Sequence record: PZ386965.1
DNA from: a phage
Length of the DNA: 64,000 bases
Strand: one strand, 5' to 3'
Shown piece after piece: positions 1-39,766 of the stretch. Position numbers and translations under genes: made by a program. Position 1 is the first letter of the stretch, and each line of letters opens with the position of its first letter. The notes below the pieces were generated by a model, which saw only the letters and a list, made by a program, of their open reading frames with translations, made no database searches and had not been told where the DNA came from.

Positions 1-73
1 TAATTTCAGGGACAACGAGAAGATGTTGTCCGGTTGAATACTCCGCCATTATAAATCTCCGTGTTTAAAGCAA

Positions 74-81
74 TATAAATA
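74..81 (+). promoter_or_regulatory. T4-type late promoter candidate (TATAAATA)
   Basis: Exact TATAAATA 46 nt upstream of the ATG at 127; SD AAGGA at 113-117. Confidence 0.4.
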
Positions 82-126
82 GGTTTATCAATTTATCTGT
101 TGCTGTATCAAATAAGGATTTAGTAA

Positions 127-843
127 ATGAATTATAACTCAATATACGAAAAGCTTATTACCAATGCTAAATCAAGAAGTTTAGATGGTTATACAGAACG
201 TCATCACATTATACCACAATGTTTAGGTGGAAGTGATGATGCTTCAAACTTAGTAGACTTAACACCAGAAGAACATTATTTGGCACATCAACTGTTGGTA
301 AAAATCTATCCAGATAATGCCTCTTTAATATACGCTGCTCGTATGATGACCATATCATCTCCTAAAGCAGATAGAAGCAAAAACAAATTATTTGGATGGC
401 TTCGTCGTAAGAATCAAGAAGTTCAAAAGAACAAAGAATTCACGGCTGAAACCCGTAAGAAAATGTCCGAGTCTGCAAAAAATAAACCAAAGATTACCTG
501 TCCACATTGTGGTTTAACTGGAACTGAAGGAAACATGCGTCGTTGGCATTTTGATAATTGTAAACAAGGTCCAACGCCTAAAATAGTAAAATTATCTGAT
601 GATGAAAAACAGAGGATAAGTTCTAAACTTAAAACAATAGAGTGGAAACTCCACACATGTGTACACTGTGGTCTAGAAGGAAAAGCTTGCAATATAGTTC
701 CTCATGAGAAAAACTGCAAACTTAATCCTAATAGAATAAAACCTAATGTAACAATAGTGGAATGTCCATACTGCTCTAAAAGTGGTTCTATATCAAATAT
801 GAAAAGATGGCATTTCGATAATTGTAAATATAAGCCTCATTAA
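127..843 (+). CDS. HNH homing endonuclease with three C-terminal zinc-finger-like repeats
   Basis: 238 aa; N-terminal ERHHIIPxxxGG..N..EH..AH HNH signature; three CxxC...(R/K)RWHFDNCK-type repeats; ATG with SD; only plus-strand gene in the early region. Confidence 0.75.
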   Translation: MNYNSIYEKLITNAKSRSLDGYTERHHIIPQCLGGSDDASNLVDLTPEEHYLAHQLLVKIYPDNASLIYAARMMTISSPKADRSKNKLFGWLRRKNQEVQKNKEFTAETRKKMSESAKNKPKITCPHCGLTGTEGNMRRWHFDNCKQGPTPKIVKLSDDEKQRISSKLKTIEWKLHTCVHCGLEGKACNIVPHEKNCKLNPNRIKPNVTIVECPYCSKSGSISNMKRWHFDNCKYKPH

Positions 844-2528
844 GAGGCTTTCATCACAGTAAATCGTCCAACTTTGCTCATTTGAAGATGTTGTCCATAA
901 GCTTGTGGGTCATGGTCTCTGTGACTAATTATAAACACGTTTGCATCGGTTAGAGAGTTAAGAATTGTTGAAATAGCTTTAATACCTTCAGAATCAGTCG
1001 CGGAATCCATGACTTCGTCCATAATTAATGTATTGATTCTAACACCAGAGACCTTTTCAGCAATATCTCGCCATGTAAACAACAATGCGATATCGATACG
1101 TGCCTTTTCACCTTGACTAAATGAAGCATAACTGAACTCTTCACGGCCACGTGATTTTATAGATTCATTGAATTCTTCATCAATAGAAAACACGTAATCA
1201 GCTTCCATGATTTTAAGGTAATGGTTAATCTGCTTGTTGAACAGAGGCACATATTTTTTAATGATAGCACCTTTAATACCAGAATCTTTTAACATATCTG
1301 TGATAATACCACGATGGTATTTTTCAAGAACGATATCTGATTTTGTTTTAATGATTTTATCAAGTTCTTTTTGAAGCAAAGCTATCTCATCGGCATGGTC
1401 GATAAATTCCGCCGAGGCTTGTTCTATTGCAGCTTTAACTTTCTTAGCTTTATCAATAGTGGCAATCATTGCTTGTTTCTTGGTACGAATATCAGATGCA
1501 AGGTCCTGTTTAGTCTTAACATTAGCTCTATATTCGTCCACTAGGACACTCAGATTATCTCTGTGACATGTAAGTTGCTCGAATGAGTGATTACATTCAT
1601 GAAGCTTATCGGTAATCTTAGAGACAATAGGATCACCCTGGTGCAACTGTGATGCACAAGTAGGACATGTACCGCCATCATGATACATCTTAATAACTTT
1701 GTTATATGAGTCAATTTTAGATTTAATCAAGAATGCTTCTTGTCCGATCTTGTTGAATGCCTCAGTAGGGTCTTCGTCAAGAACGATATTAAGTAGACGC
1801 TCATTAGCTTCTTCGATTTCTGCTTTTAATGAACGAGCTTCTTTGGCTAGGTCGTCATACATATTCTGTAGACGCGCTACATTATCACCAGATAATTTCT
1901 TTTGACGTTCGATATTCTCGTTATAAATCTTAATTTGTTGGATAACACCATCTTTCTTGGCATCGAGAACTTGTCCCTGGGAATTAAGTTCTCGAACTTG
2001 AGACTTATTGATTTTATCCATTTCAGCAAGTGTGCCGACTTCTAAAAGGTCTTCGACAAGTTTTCTACGAGCAGGGGTGCTAAGAGCCATGAAAGGGGTA
2101 TACCCTGCCGTCCCAAGCACAACGATCTGTTTAAAAGACGCGTATGACATTCCGATGCTACGTTCAAATTCTTCTTGGAAGTCACGACTGCTGGCAGATT
2201 CATCGAGACGAACACCGTCAACGGAGATTTCGAAAATATTGGGCTTTTGGCCACGTTTAATGAAGTATTTTTTATCATCGAATTCCATCCAAAGCTCAAC
2301 TAAGAGCTCTTTCTTGTTCGTGCTATTAATGATTTGTCCTTTCTTAACATCACGAAATGGTTTACCGAAAAGTCCGAAAGTAATGGCTTCTAACATCGTA
2401 GATTTACCACCGCCATTTTTACCAGTGATTAATGTTTTTTGGACTTTATCTAATTGGATATCAATAGGATTCCCACCTACCGACATGATGTTTTGATAAC
2501 GAACACGATTTAATTTAAATGATTTCAT
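840..2528 (-). CDS. 46: recombination endonuclease subunit gp46 (Rad50/SbcC-like ATPase)
   Basis: 562 aa; Walker A GKNGGGKST; length and sequence match recalled T4 gp46; stop codon overlaps the convergent HNH stop. Confidence 0.93.
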   Translation of the reverse strand: MKSFKLNRVRYQNIMSVGGNPIDIQLDKVQKTLITGKNGGGKSTMLEAITFGLFGKPFRDVKKGQIINSTNKKELLVELWMEFDDKKYFIKRGQKPNIFEISVDGVRLDESASSRDFQEEFERSIGMSYASFKQIVVLGTAGYTPFMALSTPARRKLVEDLLEVGTLAEMDKINKSQVRELNSQGQVLDAKKDGVIQQIKIYNENIERQKKLSGDNVARLQNMYDDLAKEARSLKAEIEEANERLLNIVLDEDPTEAFNKIGQEAFLIKSKIDSYNKVIKMYHDGGTCPTCASQLHQGDPIVSKITDKLHECNHSFEQLTCHRDNLSVLVDEYRANVKTKQDLASDIRTKKQAMIATIDKAKKVKAAIEQASAEFIDHADEIALLQKELDKIIKTKSDIVLEKYHRGIITDMLKDSGIKGAIIKKYVPLFNKQINHYLKIMEADYVFSIDEEFNESIKSRGREEFSYASFSQGEKARIDIALLFTWRDIAEKVSGVRINTLIMDEVMDSATDSEGIKAISTILNSLTDANVFIISHRDHDPQAYGQHLQMSKVGRFTVMKAS

Positions 2529-2764
2529 ATGTATTCTCTTCGAATGAAGTCCTCTACATATTTTAACATGTCATCTCTATCAGCAAAATACTCATCTAGT
2601 TCTGCATACATAACAACACCTGGTGCGTACTCACAGGTAACATACATTGTTCCAAAGAAACGAGGAGTTGTCTCCTCGTAATTCTCAGTCCATTCAACGA
2701 TACCAATATAACCGTCACCAATACTAAATTCGTGACGATGGATTTCATAGTCAGTCTTCGTCAT
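2525..2764 (-). CDS. hypothetical protein (46.1-like position)
   Basis: ORF trimmed to in-frame ATG (MTKTDYEIH) with GAGGA SD 8 nt upstream; overlaps upstream gene by 13 nt. Confidence 0.4.
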   Translation of the reverse strand: MTKTDYEIHRHEFSIGDGYIGIVEWTENYEETTPRFFGTMYVTCEYAPGVVMYAELDEYFADRDDMLKYVEDFIRREYI

Positions 2765-3008
2765 TATACGCATCCTCGATACACGCTTCAGCCATTTTAA
2801 GAATAGAGCCAGGAGTATCATTGTCCATTATATTAAAGCTAAATTCAATAGCCCAGTCGGTACAGACATGAACGGCTTTAACTTCATTGCCTTCAACGCG
2901 TAATGGCTCAATCCAATACTTGATAGTGTTCTCGAATCCATCATCATCTTTAACGTCTATTTCAACTTCAAGCCCGAGCCCAGCATTATTAAATTCATCT
3001 AAAGTCAT
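2751..3008 (-). CDS. hypothetical acidic protein (46.2-like position)
   Basis: 85-aa ORF with ATG start, tightly packed between 47 and 46. Confidence 0.45.
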   Translation of the reverse strand: MTLDEFNNAGLGLEVEIDVKDDDGFENTIKYWIEPLRVEGNEVKAVHVCTDWAIEFSFNIMDNDTPGSILKMAEACIEDAYNDED

Positions 3009-4024
3009 TGTGTTGCCTCAATATAAAGTTCGTTGGAATATTTGACCAGCGCTTCTCTGTCTTCGTCTGAGATATCTGGAATAGCGTCAATATATTCTTT
3101 AATGATATCTTGAAGTGATTTAATCTCGATTTCCTGGTCATCATCAGATTCAACACTGTTATCAACTTTAGAAACCATACGAAGAGAGTGAACTACTTTT
3201 TCAAGTTCAGATTCAAACTTAGTCAACTCTGAATCAATTTCTGATACTATAACACGTACGGCTAGATTAGTATAATCAGAATAATTGATTTTGCCTTTAA
3301 ATGGATAAGTGATTCGTCGATGCCATGTTGTTTCATTAGGAATAAATTCCATACGTTCAACATCAGTGTCAAATACCCAGAATCCACGTGGGTCGTTCTC
3401 GTCACCTGCAGTAAGGGTCCATGGTGTCCCAATATATTTGACGTTAGCAGCTTCAGAGATTGTGTGGAAGTGGCCGGACCAGACTTGTTTATAGGTCTTT
3501 AAGAAATCAGGTTCAAGCCCATGGGACTTCATTCCTTTATAGAAATAAAAGCCGTTCAGTTCCCAGTGACCAACACAATACGCAGCAGAAGAAGTCTTGA
3601 TGTGCTCTAAGATTTCACCTGTATTTTCTTCACACATCCATGGAACGATATCAATCAGACATCCGTCAAAATCTACAGTAGTTGGATGCTCGTAAATAGT
3701 AAAGTTTTCAAATTGAGTTAACAATTCAGAAACAGTGTTAGGTGTTATTGTATTCTTAAACGCCATGTCATGGTTTCCTATCGTGACATGAACGTGAATG
3801 CCTGCTTTAGAAATCATATCAACGATTTCACGATTGAATTCCATTGTACGATGTGTTATTGCTTTACGGACGTCAAACCAATCACCGTACTGAATCCAAG
3901 TTTTAATCCCGTGTTTCTTAGAGTATTCAATTGCTTGTCGAATACCATCACGTTGAATATCTTGAACCCATGGGTCGTCTTGTTTGACTCCGATATGGAA
4001 GTCGCCTAAGTGCAAAATTTTCAT
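3005..4024 (-). CDS. 47: recombination nuclease subunit gp47 (Mre11/SbcD-like phosphoesterase)
   Basis: 339 aa; GDxHxG and GNHD phosphoesterase motifs; matches recalled T4 gp47; GAGGA SD. Confidence 0.93.
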   Translation of the reverse strand: MKILHLGDFHIGVKQDDPWVQDIQRDGIRQAIEYSKKHGIKTWIQYGDWFDVRKAITHRTMEFNREIVDMISKAGIHVHVTIGNHDMAFKNTITPNTVSELLTQFENFTIYEHPTTVDFDGCLIDIVPWMCEENTGEILEHIKTSSAAYCVGHWELNGFYFYKGMKSHGLEPDFLKTYKQVWSGHFHTISEAANVKYIGTPWTLTAGDENDPRGFWVFDTDVERMEFIPNETTWHRRITYPFKGKINYSDYTNLAVRVIVSEIDSELTKFESELEKVVHSLRMVSKVDNSVESDDDQEIEIKSLQDIIKEYIDAIPDISDEDREALVKYSNELYIEATQ

Positions 4025-4812: not shown

Positions 4813-5028
4813 TTATCTCATTAAATTAAAATAAAAACGTCCGTCCTCTTCAATACAGAACTCGTACTCAACTGGAGTCCCATTTATCGAAAATGACACG
4901 TCATGCGGGTTCAAAGGGTCGATGTCAAAATTAATTTTAAATTCTCGACCCAACAGTTTTACCAAATAAGGGATTGCTTCGTCAAAAGGTTCTTCTAAGT
5001 AGTTAGAGATGTCAATTGTCATCCTCAT
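4813..5028 (-). CDS. hypothetical protein
   Basis: ORF trimmed to internal ATG to limit overlap with gp55; start uncertain. Confidence 0.3.
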
Positions 5029-5569
5029 ATAAAAAATCCAAACTAGGCGAATCGCTAACAACTTCCTTCTTTTCAGCCCCAGGAGCTTTATAAGCGGATT
5101 CTTCATAATGCGTCATTTTATCGTAGATGTCTTGAATAAACGTTTCATCTACCAACGCTACCATATCATCGTCATGACTGTCGTAGACATTATGAACGAA
5201 GTAACTATATTTCTTTGCAACTTCCTTACGTTCTTTTTTGATACGTTGGACAAAAGCATTAAAACAAGCTCGAGTTATGTATGCATGTGGGTTATTGTAC
5301 TTAGTTTCGTCGAAATTATGAAGTCCCTTAATAGAGGCTTCAATCCCATCTGCAATCATCTCCTGCTTCCAAGACTGGGTATATCCTGAAAAGTTGAAAC
5401 GTTTGGACAGGCCTTCGGCGATAAGCATAATTGCTAAACCGATGGTATCATTCTGACGAATAATTTTGTTTGGGTCTTTATTATTTAAGAGCTCCTTTTT
5501 CCACTCGATTATAGCGGCGAGAAGCTCTTTATTATTCACATAGTTATTTTTAGGTTTTTGTTCAGTCAT
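5012..5569 (-). CDS. 55: late-transcription sigma factor gp55
   Basis: 185 aa from ATG ([17 protein letters not shown]) with AGAGG SD; matches recalled T4 gp55; ORF-track start is a TTG extension. Confidence 0.9.
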
Positions 5570-5641
5570 AAGTACCTCTTGGCTCAATTCATAGGTCTAT
5601 TATATCATAATATTTAGAGGCCTATCTTAAAGCACGAGATA

Positions 5642-5911
5642 CTATCGGAGCAAACAATACGCCTGGAATACTTTTTCCATTAAACGTTTGAACTCATGTA
5701 TATCAATATAAAGCTCGGTTAATCCAGCTCCATAAAGAAAATCTAAAAAGTTCTCATGTGTTTCGTTATAGTCGCCTTCGTTTAATTGAGATACATGAGT
5801 TTCCCAAAAACCGACACCTTTAACAAATGGAAAATACGTAACTTTCATAAAGTTGTCGACGTAAAATTCGCCCAGCTTTTCTTCAGTTATACTGATTCGA
5901 GTTAATTTCAT
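5642..5911 (-). CDS. hypothetical protein
   Basis: 89-aa ORF in 55.x region. Confidence 0.4.
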   Translation of the reverse strand: MKLTRISITEEKLGEFYVDNFMKVTYFPFVKGVGFWETHVSQLNEGDYNETHENFLDFLYGAGLTELYIDIHEFKRLMEKVFQAYCLLR

Positions 5912-32934: not shown

Positions 32935-33891
32935 TTATTTGAAAGGTTTTACCATATGAAAATTTTGTTTGAAACGCTTGACGTAATCGTCGTGTCCTAA
33001 GCTTTGATACATACTTACTACTTTGCCATAGTTCTCCCAGGCATACTCACGGAACCAGCCTGATGTGATTGAAGTACAGACCTTTTCTAATGCCATCATA
33101 AAACTATCACGAGGATGGATTTCAAAGCCATTAGGAATCTGAGAACGTTCTAATGCTAGTACACATGATTCTTCGTATACGCCGGCCAATTTGACCATTT
33201 CCGGTAATGATTCGAACTTCTCGCGTGAGGTCATGACTTCAGAACCATCTTTCATATAAAATGTATACGCTGGACGGTCTGTTAGTGCAATGGCTTCGTG
33301 AATAGTATCATGGTCATACGTATAGATGTCATCTTTAAAGAATGCGCTTTTAGAAGTGTCAAGAACCGGGTGAGCATAGTTCAAGGTTTCTTTCTGGCGT
33401 TTCAGCATAATTTCAGTAAGTTCATCGTCCAGTGTAACACCTTTACCACGAAGATACTGAATATGGTTCATAGTCTTTAAAAAGAATGGATTATTTTTCT
33501 TGAAACGATGAGACATCTTAATTGCAAGACACATCTCAGGAGTTGCCCAGTAAAACCCGTTCAAACGGTCTTTAGTCAAATTTTTCTTGGCGTATTTTAA
33601 AAGGTCATAAGAAGACGTGAAATCTTCAGGAGTGAGTTCACCGACTAATTCACGGACATTAGTGATTGCCGGAACAATGTATGCTTCAAAATGAGTTTCG
33701 CGTCCGTTATGGAAGCATTTGAAAACTTGGACATCAGGGTTATCTTGGTGAACATATACACCCATCATTTGATTTTTGAATACATTCCAAGAACCTTGGT
33801 CCGCAATAAAGTCCCAATCACTATTTTTGATAGCGCTAGAATCAATAAGGCCGTGATAGTGAAGTGCACGAGAACCAATAACCAACATCAT
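32935..33891 (-). CDS. hypothetical protein
   Basis: 318-aa ORF. Confidence 0.5.
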   Translation of the reverse strand: MMLVIGSRALHYHGLIDSSAIKNSDWDFIADQGSWNVFKNQMMGVYVHQDNPDVQVFKCFHNGRETHFEAYIVPAITNVRELVGELTPEDFTSSYDLLKYAKKNLTKDRLNGFYWATPEMCLAIKMSHRFKKNNPFFLKTMNHIQYLRGKGVTLDDELTEIMLKRQKETLNYAHPVLDTSKSAFFKDDIYTYDHDTIHEAIALTDRPAYTFYMKDGSEVMTSREKFESLPEMVKLAGVYEESCVLALERSQIPNGFEIHPRDSFMMALEKVCTSITSGWFREYAWENYGKVVSMYQSLGHDDYVKRFKQNFHMVKPFK

Positions 33892-33916
33892 AATAATTTC
33901 CTCGAATTTAGATTAC

Positions 33917-34168
33917 TTAAATTTCGCGACATGCGATATTATATTCATCCCAGAGGTCGTCATGTGAAGCCTCTACCAATGGAACGATTGTGCCGTTTAT
34001 GTCTTCATTATAAGGGCAAATTGTACAGTGCGCATCTTCGAATCGGATGCCTTTGTGTTCAGATTTTTTATAACGCATATCGAATATCTTTGCAAACTTT
34101 TCACGAGTAATAGTTTTAGCAACTACTTCGGTTCCGATACTTTCGTAATAAATCATTGTAGACTCCAT
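33917..34168 (-). CDS. hypothetical protein
   Basis: 83-aa ORF; CTIC...C pair. Confidence 0.4.
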   Translation of the reverse strand: MESTMIYYESIGTEVVAKTITREKFAKIFDMRYKKSEHKGIRFEDAHCTICPYNEDINGTIVPLVEASHDDLWDEYNIACREI

Positions 34169-34184
34169 TTAATTTGATAGGACT

Positions 34185-34213
34185 ACTATAACATAGCCCT
34201 ATCTTGTTGTAAA
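34185..34213 (-). promoter_or_regulatory. early promoter within 28-bp palindromic promoter-stem-loop element (1 mismatch)
   Basis: GATAGGACTACTATAACATAGCCCTATC; TTTACA-N17-TATAGT. Confidence 0.5.
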
Positions 34214-34218
34214 CTGTT

Positions 34219-34416
34219 TTAGCAAGAATAACTAGATGATACCCAGCCTTGAACAGTAATACTATTATTTGATAACGAGATTGCGTCCTGGAGATTAAGA
34301 CCTGCGTTATCTTCAATCCACAATGTAACTTCTTCACGCTCTTCGGTTGCAATCTGGAACAGGTTTTCTAGGGCAGCTACTGCTGTACGTACAGCACAAT
34401 CTAATTCACGAGACAT
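34219..34416 (-). CDS. small protein, C-terminal GWVSSSYSC (paralog family member 3)
   Basis: 65 aa; shares terminal G-x-W-V-S-S-S-x-x-C with the two genes upstream. Confidence 0.45.
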   Translation of the reverse strand: MSRELDCAVRTAVAALENLFQIATEEREEVTLWIEDNAGLNLQDAISLSNNSITVQGWVSSSYSC

Positions 34417-34425
34417 ATGATTTCC

Positions 34426-34698
34426 TTAACAAGTGTGAGAAGATGCAACCCAACCGCCATCTTCAAGGCTCAAGTTGTAGTCGTATTGGTAAACATCGGC
34501 CCATTCAGCATAACCGTTTTTTGTACAACGTTCAAGATCGGCTTTAAGATGTCCTGGCGAATGATAGGTTCCACCCATGCCATAAGCTGGATACAAGTCG
34601 AATGTTGTGTTTTGTTTATCAGCAATTTCTTTGGCAGCCTCAATAGCTGCATAGATTTTTGCTACGGCTTCAGCCAGTTCGGTTTGTTCTTTAGACAT
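34426..34698 (-). CDS. small protein, C-terminal GGWVASSHTC (paralog family member 2)
   Basis: 90 aa; MSK start; YPAYGMGGTY core; terminal Cys. Confidence 0.45.
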   Translation of the reverse strand: MSKEQTELAEAVAKIYAAIEAAKEIADKQNTTFDLYPAYGMGGTYHSPGHLKADLERCTKNGYAEWADVYQYDYNLSLEDGGWVASSHTC

Positions 34699-34707
34699 AA
34701 TGATTCC

Positions 34708-35013
34708 TTAGCACAACGCAGAAGACGAAACCCAAGCACCTTCAGTAATAACGTAACCATTACCTTCACGCTTAACGTCGCCACCATTATTTTCAATTTC
34801 ATTTTTCATCCACTGGGATACGATTTCACCCTTAGGATAATAAGTACGACCGCTACCATAATCACCTACAGAAAACGATACAGCGTATTGGTCTGCGATC
34901 TTTGTTGCTTCTTCTTCGATACGTTCAGCTTGATTCAGAAGTTTATAAATTGCATCTGAAGCGGATTTGGCATCATTAAACTCTGGTACTTTAATTTCAA
35001 TAATCTTACTCAT
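34708..35013 (-). CDS. small protein, C-terminal GAWVSSSALC (paralog family member 1)
   Basis: 101 aa; MSK start; DYGSGRTYYPKGE core; terminal Cys. Confidence 0.45.
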   Translation of the reverse strand: MSKIIEIKVPEFNDAKSASDAIYKLLNQAERIEEEATKIADQYAVSFSVGDYGSGRTYYPKGEIVSQWMKNEIENNGGDVKREGNGYVITEGAWVSSSALC

Positions 35014-39609: not shown

Positions 39610-39686
<77 letters not shown>

Positions 39687-39692
39687 AATATA

Positions 39693-39766
39693 TGACCCAG
39701 ACCAGATTCGAACTGGTAACCTTTCCCTTATGAGGGGACTGCTGCTAACCATTGAGCTACAGGGCC
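39693..39766 (-). tRNA. tRNA with CAU anticodon (Met or lysidine-type Ile)
   Basis: Manual fold: acceptor 6/7 bp, T-arm ACCAG-UUCGAAU-CUGGU, anticodon loop CUCAUAA; D-stem only 3 bp; no encoded CCA. Confidence 0.6.

Follow-up and report, generated by a model that had tools for sequence, protein, structure and literature searches.

Two questions are raised by the junction of genes 45.2 and 46 in this phage: what is encoded by the one gene that runs against its early-region neighbours, and how did that gene come to lie there? The 64,000-nucleotide stretch of DNA that we analyzed (record PZ386965.1, here called the window) belongs to a Mosigvirus (RB69-like T-even) genome. An intact open reading frame with an ATG start, encoding 238 amino acids, occupies positions 127-843 on the plus strand. 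It is convergent with gene 46 (840-2528, minus strand), which encodes the SbcC/Rad50-like recombination nuclease subunit (phrog_77 at 3.7e-192). On its other side, the 5' end of gene 45.2 (1-49, minus strand), recognized from the 45.2 annotation in phages a20, F2 and HX01 and from the junction sequences, leaves the window. The stop codon of the open reading frame is TAA at 841-843 and that of gene 46 reads TTA at 840-842 in plus-strand letters, so that both lie within TTAA at 840-843, an overlap already noticed in the preliminary description of this DNA.

A coding gene and its protein family

The preliminary description had also called this the only plus-strand gene in the early region, which we can confirm for open reading frames of at least 80 amino acids. 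All other plus-strand frames of this size between 844 and 45351 overlap a minus-strand frame. No PHROG match was found for any of the nine tested in the early region, and in the five cases out of nine in which the overlapping minus-strand frame was tested as well, that frame had a match. We therefore rejected these plus-strand frames as genes. AT-rich phage DNA gives many such shadow frames, and with nine spurious-looking examples nearby, the frame at 127-843 might itself have been a mis-called antisense gene with coincidental motifs. However, it is the sole open reading frame of its interval, where the opposite strand codes for nothing, and relatives lack it as a whole. The protein matches phrog_655 ("homing endonuclease") at 3.4e-66 and can be aligned along its whole length with T4 MobE (34% identity at 99% coverage, E 3e-35); it has 2909 homologues at E-values up to 1e-5 and a confident AF2 model (pLDDT 87). 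Together, these results refute a chance frame.

The gene was described as free-standing, and this also holds. It is intergenic between 45.2 and 46, and an Rfam scan of the window found two tRNAs only and no intron at the gene, so we rejected a group I intron context.

Curated domain models remain below their thresholds for this protein. Pfam HNH scores 15.3 bits (cut-off 21.4) and HNH_5 15.9 (cut-off 27.5), all Pfam zinc-finger models fall below the curated cut-offs, and NCBIfam yields nothing above its cut-off and only a weak IscB match. The family assignment therefore rests on PHROGs and on the homology to MobE. In the PDB, neither sequence nor profile searches went beyond marginal matches, among them profile alignments (E ~ 0.02) to HNH motifs in a group II intron maturase (6me0) and in EcoKMcrA (6ghc).

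The HNH motif itself is clear, as had been claimed. It spans amino acids 24-54 (ERHHIIPQCLGGSDDASNLVDLTPEEHYLAH; 196-288, plus strand), is supported by conserved residues and profile alignment, and reads E24-R-H26-H27...N41...H50. Among 26 homologues, down to 43% identity, H26, H27, N41, H50 and H54 are invariant. In the AF2 model, strands 24-27 and 42-45 and helix 47-60 surround the motif. Judged from these sequence features, the protein is a MobE-family HNH endonuclease with a predicted N-terminal beta-beta-alpha-metal nuclease domain. It would presumably act as a nuclease, by a nick or a double-strand break. Downstream, alignment to T4 MobE places a single NUMOD3-like motif at amino acids 106-120 (FTAETRKKMSESAKN; 442-486, plus strand), opposite the first xEETRxKMS repeat of MobE. 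Pfam finds NUMOD3 (PF07460) in many homologues and does not find it in the protein itself.

A motif scan places three C-x2-C...H-x3-C modules in the C-terminal part, at amino acids 125-145, 178-197 and 213-233. Finger 1 (499-561, plus strand) is C125-x2-C128-x12-H141-x3-C145 and ends in RWHFDNC; finger 2 (658-717, plus strand) is C178-x2-C181-x11-H193-x3-C197 with the variant ending IVPHEKNC; finger 3 (763-825, plus strand) is C213-x2-C216-x12-H229-x3-C233 and again ends in RWHFDNC. Three tandem modules had been claimed, each with RWHFDNCK. The number stands, but this ending is found only in the first and third modules, while the middle one has IVPHEKNCK. All three fingers are modeled by AF2 as a beta-hairpin followed by a helix (for finger 1, hairpin 122-133 and helix 134-144). 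In the same 26 homologues, all four ligands of finger 2 and the ligands of finger 3 never vary, and conservation is 90% or more at those of finger 1. Invariant catalytic residues together with conserved zinc ligands indicate selection on function.

Fingers of this type have been studied in I-TevIII, where the motif CX2CX12-13HX3C binds zinc and is required for DNA binding (PMC1865063). With spacers of x12, x11 and x12, the middle finger lies one residue below the range published for I-TevIII (PMC1865063). Finger 2 is homologous to the first I-TevIII finger, and finger 3 to the C-terminal fingers of I-TevIII and T4 MobE; fingers 2-3 and the tandem fingers of Bp7 I-TevIII share 44% identity over 90 amino acids (E 1e-14).

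Borders and distribution of the cassette

In a blastn comparison with HX01, positions 1-44 and 851-3000 of the window align, and 45-850 stands in place of L003 2545-2611. The borders 44|45 and 850|851 thus delimit an element of 806 bp that replaces a 67-bp segment between 45.2 and 46. Comparison of six to seven carriers with five genomes lacking the gene placed all fixed differences inside 45-850. In the flanks, neither fixed differences nor immunity substitutions nor a signature of co-conversion were seen in the 12 genomes compared, a small sample, and the target site can therefore not be placed from sequence. No cargo gene travels with the cassette in the carrier/non-carrier comparison. A 13-nt direct repeat (19-31 and 884-896) might have marked the insertion, but we rejected this reading. 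Its copies code for GQHL, one in gp45.2 and the other in gp46, it is also found in empty-site genomes and in T4 (10-11 of 13 positions), and its variants show no association with the presence of the gene.

Among about 157 Mosigvirus records at 90-99% identity, 14 carry the gene (about 9%), with an intact open reading frame in all carriers; in the remaining records the span is 739 bp shorter. HX01 has an empty junction. T4 has no gene between 45.2 (33058-33246) and 46 (33302-34984), as the preliminary description had stated, and for RB69 a complete lack of homing endonuclease genes (HEGs) was reported (PMC2993671, Table 5). We made the comparison of the junction with T4 and relatives that had been proposed, and the gene is not shared by all close relatives. 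The 67 bp in empty sites are unrelated to the cassette, homologous to the T4 arrangement and missing in carriers. Since this arrangement, a promoter-like sequence and a hairpin, is common to T4 and HX01, the empty site is the ancestral state.

The same site is occupied, in the same orientation, in Dhakavirus IME281 (66% identity), Tequatrovirus fFiEco06 and RB32 (59%), Pseudotevenvirus leB (44.5%), Klebsiella phages (47%) and two metagenomic contigs, and Tequatrovirus RB68 also carries a homologue at 45.2/46. In total, the clade found at this site comprises 171 phage records from at least five T4-like genera. P0029, which is more distantly related, is found between nrdA and nrdB, the site of MobE. 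The preliminary description had spoken of a "lineage-specific mobile insertion". Mobility is well supported, as presence varies among Mosigvirus genomes that are 97-99% identical, the borders are sharp and the homology to MobE extends over the full length. With same-site homologues in at least five genera, however, the insertion is not lineage-specific; it is sporadic and tied to one site.

We focused in particular on the segment 590-810, which extends from the linker through finger 2 into the beginning of finger 3. Here the gene differs by about 50% from the other Mosigvirus alleles, while elsewhere its identity to them is about 99%. A 5.5-kb comparison with phage a20 shows 189 mismatches, of which 110 fall inside the segment. 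At the DNA level, the segment was found only in OZ035759.1, an unannotated record that shares the allele at 100% identity. Over 193-1085 (893 nt), the window does not differ from OZ035759.1 at any position, versus about 1.5% difference in the flanks, which suggests that this tract was transferred recently. A tblastn search of the phage collection for a donor of 590-810 gave at best 47% identity for any other protein, and a word-indexed search with the C-terminal 96 amino acids against 5.8 billion proteins returned two weak matches. A full-length search identified the metagenomic protein P0005, from a distant lineage, which has the same cassette type. As a tentative and rather unlikely idea, the swap might represent natural retargeting, with alleles at this site exchanging DNA-binding modules. 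Such exchange would change which variants of the 45.2/46 junction are cut, and it would enable an allele to invade or displace sites resistant to another.

The distribution could also reflect ancestry and deletion, if an inactive, stranded HEG had invaded once and was then inherited vertically with occasional loss. The small share of carriers among close relatives and flanks devoid of co-conversion-type fixed differences would fit such a history, as would the many T4 HEGs without demonstrated activity (even for MobE, cutting in vitro was not demonstrated; PMC2790892). However, we consider it unlikely. No carrier has a broken frame, and the catalytic and finger residues of the protein are conserved as described above. 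Empty sites bear no deletion scars; instead, they hold the T4-like 67 bp that carriers lack. Moreover, the same cassette is present in ESCO47 next to a much more diverged flank, the same site is used in five genera, and the difference-free tract of 893 nt suggests recent transfer.

Putative expression signals and proposed route of spread

Together, the above observations make it likely that 45-850 is a free-standing T-even HEG cassette of the "Mob" type, spreading by homing into empty 45.2/46 sites. How the gene might be expressed, and how its neighbours accommodate it, can be read in part from the cassette ends.

A late-promoter-like sequence upstream of the gene had been noted, and it is indeed present. 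The T4-type box TATAAATA matches exactly at 74-81 (plus strand), with 45 nt between box and ATG. The octamer is found 9 times in the AT-rich window versus 7.8 expected, that is, at chance frequency, and all three plus-strand copies lie directly upstream of plus-strand gene starts. The box is kept upstream of the same-site homologues in IME281, fFiEco06 and the P0011 contig, and two other same-site homologues have CATAAATA or CTAAATA in its place. The gene for the late sigma factor gp55 is located in the window at 5012-5569. By position and conservation, the box may serve as a late promoter. A Shine-Dalgarno sequence, AAGGA (114-118, plus strand), 8 nt before the ATG, is kept in homologues as AAGGA or AGGA.

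A middle-promoter-like sequence lies back-to-back with the late box on the minus strand (48-73), as seen by comparison with HX01 and T4. It consists of a MotA-box-like TTGCTTTA at 73-66, a 12-nt spacer and TATAAT at 53-48, judged against the general consensus of T4 middle promoters. Its -10 element overlaps the ATG of 45.2 (49-47). In HX01 and T4 the same arrangement of box and -10 element is followed by a 5'UTR of about 20-30 nt, which is missing in the window. The start codon and ribosome binding site of 45.2 come from the element, and the protein begins MAEYST here versus MEYST in genomes without the gene. At the other end, the last three codons of gene 46 (843-851, KAS) are also contributed by the element, and gp46 ends in GRFTVMKAS here versus GRFTVMTVS in HX01, at equal length.

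RNA folding predicts a hairpin, AAGCCTC-ATTAA-GAGGCTT, at 832-850. Its loop contains both stop codons, and its right arm ends at the element border. The predicted energies are -12.8 kcal/mol for the plus strand (z -4.5) and -15.4 kcal/mol for the minus strand (z -5.6). The same stem is present in a20, IME281 and the P0005 and P0011 contigs, with no covariation in the stem. Because the stem is doubly coding, its conservation is no proof of a role at the RNA level, which we nevertheless regard as plausible.

We propose the following course of events. Late in infection, the HEG would be transcribed from its own putative gp55-type late promoter at 74-81, in the direction of late genes and antisense to the surrounding early and middle genes. 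The array of three CCHC fingers would give sequence-specific DNA binding. During co-infection, the enzyme would nick or cut the empty 45.2/46 junction of a relative, at or beside the junction itself. The T4 recombination machinery would then repair the lesion from the HEG-carrying template, so that the 806-bp cassette would be copied in, with end-points of the exchange set by homologous sequence on either side, at the 3' end of gene 46 and at the 5' end of 45.2. Genomes already carrying the cassette would be immune, because the 67-bp segment that it replaces is gone. The insertion would be tolerable to the host genome, as the gp46 C-terminus keeps its length and 45.2 receives a new start codon and ribosome binding site, and the hairpin over the convergent stops may stop or stabilise both transcripts.

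A nuclease of this kind could alternatively be retained mainly for the benefit of the phage, by marker exclusion or by local recombination or amplification, with self-spread being secondary. T-even HEGs do cause marker exclusion, and SegB promotes amplification of anti-defence loci according to a recent report (PMC13096335). The site is also suggestive, as it lies between essential genes for recombination (46/47) and replication (45/44/62) and linked alleles would therefore hitchhike, and the family has been kept at 45.2/46 across genera. Yet this explanation invokes no separate mechanism, since it relies on the same site-specific cutting and repair, and the low frequency in close relatives argues against a strong benefit. 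The cassette also brings no cargo gene with it. We think it improbable as the main reason for retention, and spread by homing into empty sites remains our preferred reading.

The value of these results is mostly one of tidiness, in that a selfish element in Mosigvirus receives a correct label and exact borders. The type phage of the genus, RB69, had been reported as HEG-free. In addition, the clade at this site is a clean natural system for studying how free-standing HEGs are targeted, with carrier and non-carrier phages that are 97-99% identical, borders exact to the base, and two alleles whose only difference is a zinc-finger segment. The results further point to a recombination hot-spot beside the gp46/47 and gp45/44/62 genes, which should be anticipated when therapeutic T-even phages are built or compared.

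Comparison with known systems

The annotation as such is not new, since records of relatives already name a homing or "intron-like" endonuclease (a20, F2, NHEP10, NRG-P0074 and RB32). In the literature that we searched, no description of the HEG at 45.2/46 and no characterization of its clade was found. The same-site homologues in GenBank (for example a20_170, "homing endonuclease", and F2 KMC05_gp056) have the locus and orientation seen here; the RB32 gene is labelled "putative site-specific intron-like DNA endonuclease" and that of leB "Mob-like HNH homing endonuclease". They share with our gene an architecture of 237-239 amino acids and three fingers, at 44-81% identity. Unlike the annotated alleles, the gene in the window has a different finger-2 segment (590-810), with about 50% DNA divergence from the Mosigvirus ones.

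The HNH endonuclease of the nrdB intron in RB3 and Bp7, I-TevIII, has homologous tandem C-terminal CCHC fingers of the same ligand-spacing class. However, I-TevIII is intron-encoded with two fingers, whereas the gene studied here is free-standing with three, and the catalytic domains have no detectable similarity. I-TevIII dimerises and makes a double-strand break.

The closest parallel is T4 MobE. Both proteins have an HNH domain of the form MNYxxIY...ExHHIIPxCxGGxDDxxNLVxLT...EH (about 55% identity in the first 60 amino acids), a NUMOD3-type ETRxKMS motif and a C-terminal CPHC...RWH(F/Y)DxCK zinc finger, and both genes are free-standing, intergenic between conserved T-even genes and sporadic among relatives. 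Experiments with MobE revealed preferential inheritance and a strand-specific nick in T2 nrdB that depends on the HNH motif, but cutting in vitro could not be demonstrated (PMC2790892), so that the family may act by a nick or by a double-strand break. The two differ in site (45.2/46 versus nrdA/nrdB) and in architecture, with three fingers and one NUMOD3-like motif here versus one finger and about four NUMOD3 repeats in MobE. Our gene runs opposite to its neighbours and has a late-promoter-like box to itself, whereas mobE lacks a promoter and is transcribed together with nrdA (PMC2790892). On this comparison of sequences and sites, the HEG at 45.2/46 belongs to a paralogous, and by prediction differently targeted, clade and is not MobE itself.

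The endonuclease gene and its product

The plus-strand ORF at 127-843 (ATG start, 238 aa) converges with gene 46 (840-2528, minus strand; phrog_77, SbcC-like, 3.7e-192), and both stop codons lie inside the TTAA at 840-843, as stated in the preliminary description. The accompanying claim, that this is the only plus-strand gene in the early region, was also borne out. Between 844 and 45351, every other plus-strand ORF of at least 80 aa overlaps a minus-strand ORF; none of the nine plus-strand ORFs tested there had a PHROG match, and in five of these nine cases the minus-strand ORF opposite was tested too and had one. The identities of gene 47 (3005-4024), the late sigma factor gene gp55 (5012-5569), the NrdD gene and the plus-strand baseplate genes from 45352 were confirmed. 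Two adjacent minus-strand tRNA genes (39613-39686 and 39693-39766) are the sole Rfam matches in the window. Two adjacent small minus-strand ORFs (34426-34698 and 34708-35013) both match the C-terminal part of phrog_899, a family of unknown function, which may reflect duplication in tandem or the splitting of one gene.

The protein falls into the PHROGs family phrog_655 "homing endonuclease" (3.4e-66) and aligns end to end with MobE, the T4 endonuclease at nrdA/nrdB (34% identity, E 3e-35). It scored 15.3 bits against Pfam HNH, under the cut-off of 21.4, and an NCBIfam search gave no useful match. The HNH motif noted earlier is present: the N-terminal 60 residues contain ExHHIIPxCxGGxDDxxNLVxLTxxEH, and H26, H27, N41 and H50 do not vary among 26 aligned homologues (down to 43% identity). 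The profile of this alignment reaches, weakly (E ~0.02), HNH motifs in EcoKMcrA and in a group II intron maturase. A single NUMOD3-like motif, ETRKKMS, is located C-terminal to the HNH region.

Three zinc-finger modules were found, their ligands spaced almost identically (C125-x2-C128-x12-H141-x3-C145, C178-x2-C181-x11-H193-x3-C197 and C213-x2-C216-x12-H229-x3-C233). Their number agrees with the preliminary description, but the RWHFDNCK ending attributed to all three is present only in fingers 1 and 3, and finger 2 reads IVPHEKNCK. Over 90 aa, fingers 2-3 share 44% identity (E 1e-14) with the tandem fingers of I-TevIII, an endonuclease encoded in the nrdB intron; the I-TevIII fingers have the pattern CX2CX12-13HX3C, bind zinc and are needed for DNA binding (PMC1865063). 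An AlphaFold model built from the 26-sequence alignment was confident (pLDDT 87), with an N-terminal beta-beta-alpha unit followed by three beta-hairpin-plus-helix fingers; PDB searches with the whole chain returned nothing informative.

Insertion boundaries and distribution

In T4, gene 45.2 (33058-33246) is directly followed by gene 46 (33302-34984), without an endonuclease gene, in line with the preliminary description. Only a short spacer is present at this junction in the non-carrier HX01 and in most Mosigvirus records; some Tequatrovirus phages carry the gene. The HX01 alignment covers window positions 1-44 and 851-3000, with 806 bp (45-850) in the window versus 67 bp in HX01. Comparing 6-7 carriers (the window, OZ035759.1, a20, F2, NRG-P0074, ESCO47, 348Ecol098PP) with five non-carriers (HX01, LH01, JK36, ATK47, mar007P3), we found all fixed differences within 45-850, and polymorphisms outside this interval were common to both groups. 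The edges of the element are inside coding sequence: gp46 ends in …GRFTVMKAS-stop in carriers versus …GRFTVMTVS-stop, at equal length, in non-carriers, and gp45.2 starts with MAEYST… versus MEYST…. Judged from these alignments, the cassette is an insertion with edges readable to the base. The reverse scenario, an empty site left as a deletion scar, was rejected, because the empty site contains a separate hairpin (z -4.5 in HX01, -5.0 in T4) and a MotA-box/-10 promoter-like sequence in a T4-like arrangement; the empty state is therefore the ancestral one.

The cassette is flanked by two exact copies of a 13-nt direct repeat, GAAGATGTTGTCC (19-31 and 884-896), which codes for G-Q-H-L at the N-terminus of gp45.2 and in the C-terminal region of gp46. 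The repeat is also found in empty-site Mosigvirus genomes (0-1 mismatch) and, with 10-11 of 13 positions, in T4. As it shows no linkage to carrier status, it is probably a coding coincidence.

Window positions 1-3000 matched 270 phage records by megablast (best match OZ035759.1, 98.7%), about 157 of them at 90-99% identity and assigned to Mosigvirus, the RB69-like T-even phages. The gene occurs in 14 of these approximately 157 close records, corresponding to 12 distinct genomes (ST0 and F2 twice each). RB69, the type Mosigvirus, reportedly has no homing endonuclease genes at all (PMC2993671, Table 5). The same junction is occupied in the same orientation in Dhakavirus (IME281, Bp7; 66% identity), Tequatrovirus (fFiEco06, RB32, RB68; about 59%), Klebsiella and Enterobacter T4-like phages (RCIP0009, PMBT1; 44-48%), the Cronobacter Pseudotevenvirus leB (44.5%) and metagenomic contigs (P0005, 77%; P0011, 62%). 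There was one copy per record in 171 records (E<=1e-60), and P0029, a more distant homologue, lies between nrdA and nrdB, i.e., at the MobE site. The constant site and patchy occurrence across lineages make this a site-specific Mob-family clade that is not private to one lineage, with a distribution as predicted for a homing element. Of the proposed lineage-specific mobile insertion, the mobile insertion thus stands, but the lineage specificity does not.

Some carriers have a second HNH/homing endonuclease gene directly upstream of gene 46 (F2, 5015-5875; NRG-P0074, 5044-5898), where the window holds 46.1 (DUF5487, ~2525-2764), suggesting that the 46 region is a target of more than one mobile endonuclease.

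Candidate expression signals

A late-promoter-type box, TATAAATA, is present as an octamer match at 74-81 on the plus strand, and the ATG follows a Shine-Dalgarno sequence, AAGGA (114-118, plus strand), at a distance of 8 nt. The box had been noted in the preliminary description; the octamer alone is not significant, with 9 matches versus 7.8 expected in the AT-rich window, but box and 5'UTR block, (T)TATC…GTATCAAATAAGGA, are kept upstream of the homologues that occupy this site in other genera, with slight degeneracy in leB and the P0005 contig. The three plus-strand copies (74, 45230, 54510) are each located just upstream of a plus-strand gene. Taking together the conserved box, the gp55 gene in the window and the orientation of the endonuclease gene in the late-gene direction, late-promoter use can reasonably be inferred. 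Between box and start, the block (T)TATC…GC.GTATCAAATAAGGA is conserved in the window (82-126, with an additional TTTATC repeat) and, across genera, in the homologous 5'UTRs of the related sequences L005, L006, L007, L017 and L018. The block might act as an operator or mask the RBS, for which I-TevI and Aeh1 mobE are reported precedents.

The minus strand carries, at 48-73, a sequence resembling a middle promoter (TTGCTTTA, a 12-nt spacer, TATAAT) that stands back to back with the late box; its TATAAT -10 shares bases with the start codon of 45.2 (49-47). In HX01 and T4, box and -10 are arranged in the same way, and a 5'UTR of 20-30 nt that includes a Shine-Dalgarno sequence comes after them. 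This 5'UTR is absent in the window, so a transcript from the 48-73 element would lack the 45.2 AUG in carriers. The Tequatrovirus carrier fFiEco06 is without the middle-promoter-like sequence altogether.

At the 3' end of the gene, AAGCCTC-ATTAA-GAGGCTT (832-850) gives a strong hairpin on either strand (z -4.5 and -5.6), and this hairpin is also present in a20, IME281 and the two metagenomic lineages. Since both arms are coding and covariation is absent, a role as terminator or stabiliser is only a guess.

Mosaic allele, likely mechanism and comparison with MobE

Except for 590-810, the cassette is about 98-99% identical to those of other carrier Mosigvirus. These 220 bp (linker, finger 2 and start of finger 3) contain ~110 differences, i.e., about 50% divergence. 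At the DNA level the segment is found only in OZ035759.1, and its best other protein match in the phage collection is at most 47%. A similar cassette type (…WKxHTCxHCGLxGKACNIxPHEKxCKxNPNRIK…) is present in P0005, at the same site of a different T4-like contig. By these comparisons, the window allele is a recombinant within the site-46 clade; the finger-segment swap is the only mildly novel thread.

I-TevIII uses its zinc fingers for DNA binding and, as a dimer, breaks both DNA strands. MobE introduces an HNH-dependent nick in T2 nrdB, which leads to co-conversion (PMC2790892). A mechanism is proposed by analogy with these two enzymes and from the features described above: the site-46 endonuclease would be made late in infection, use its finger array to bind the 45.2/46 junction, empty in a co-infecting relative, and nick or cut there; recombinational repair would then copy the cassette in, via homology in 46 and 45.2. 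Since no substitutions outside 45-850 distinguish the carriers, their immunity is most simply explained by a recognition site in or across the 67 bp replaced by the cassette.

Two observations fit recent movement. In ESCO47, the cassette, with unchanged boundaries, adjoins a left flank (rpbA/45.2, 1900-2545) that is strongly diverged, its private substitutions numbering in the dozens. Window 193-1085 and OZ035759.1 2693-3585 have 0 differences over 893 nt, versus ~1.5% in the surrounding 5 kb; this stretch, which takes in the greater part of the endonuclease gene together with the final 235 nt of gene 46, is a possible recent conversion tract.

Together, the original observation is confirmed and its interpretation supported, with corrections on two points: the sequence of the middle finger, and the occurrence, which is patchy across genera rather than lineage-specific. 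The element is of a known kind, with a mosaic allele. Several relatives' records already carry a homing endonuclease label (in RB32, "putative site-specific intron-like DNA endonuclease"), and no paper describing a 45.2/46 endonuclease site was found in the literature searched. The site-46 gene differs from mobE in having its own late-promoter-like box, whereas mobE has no promoter and is co-transcribed with nrdA (PMC2790892).
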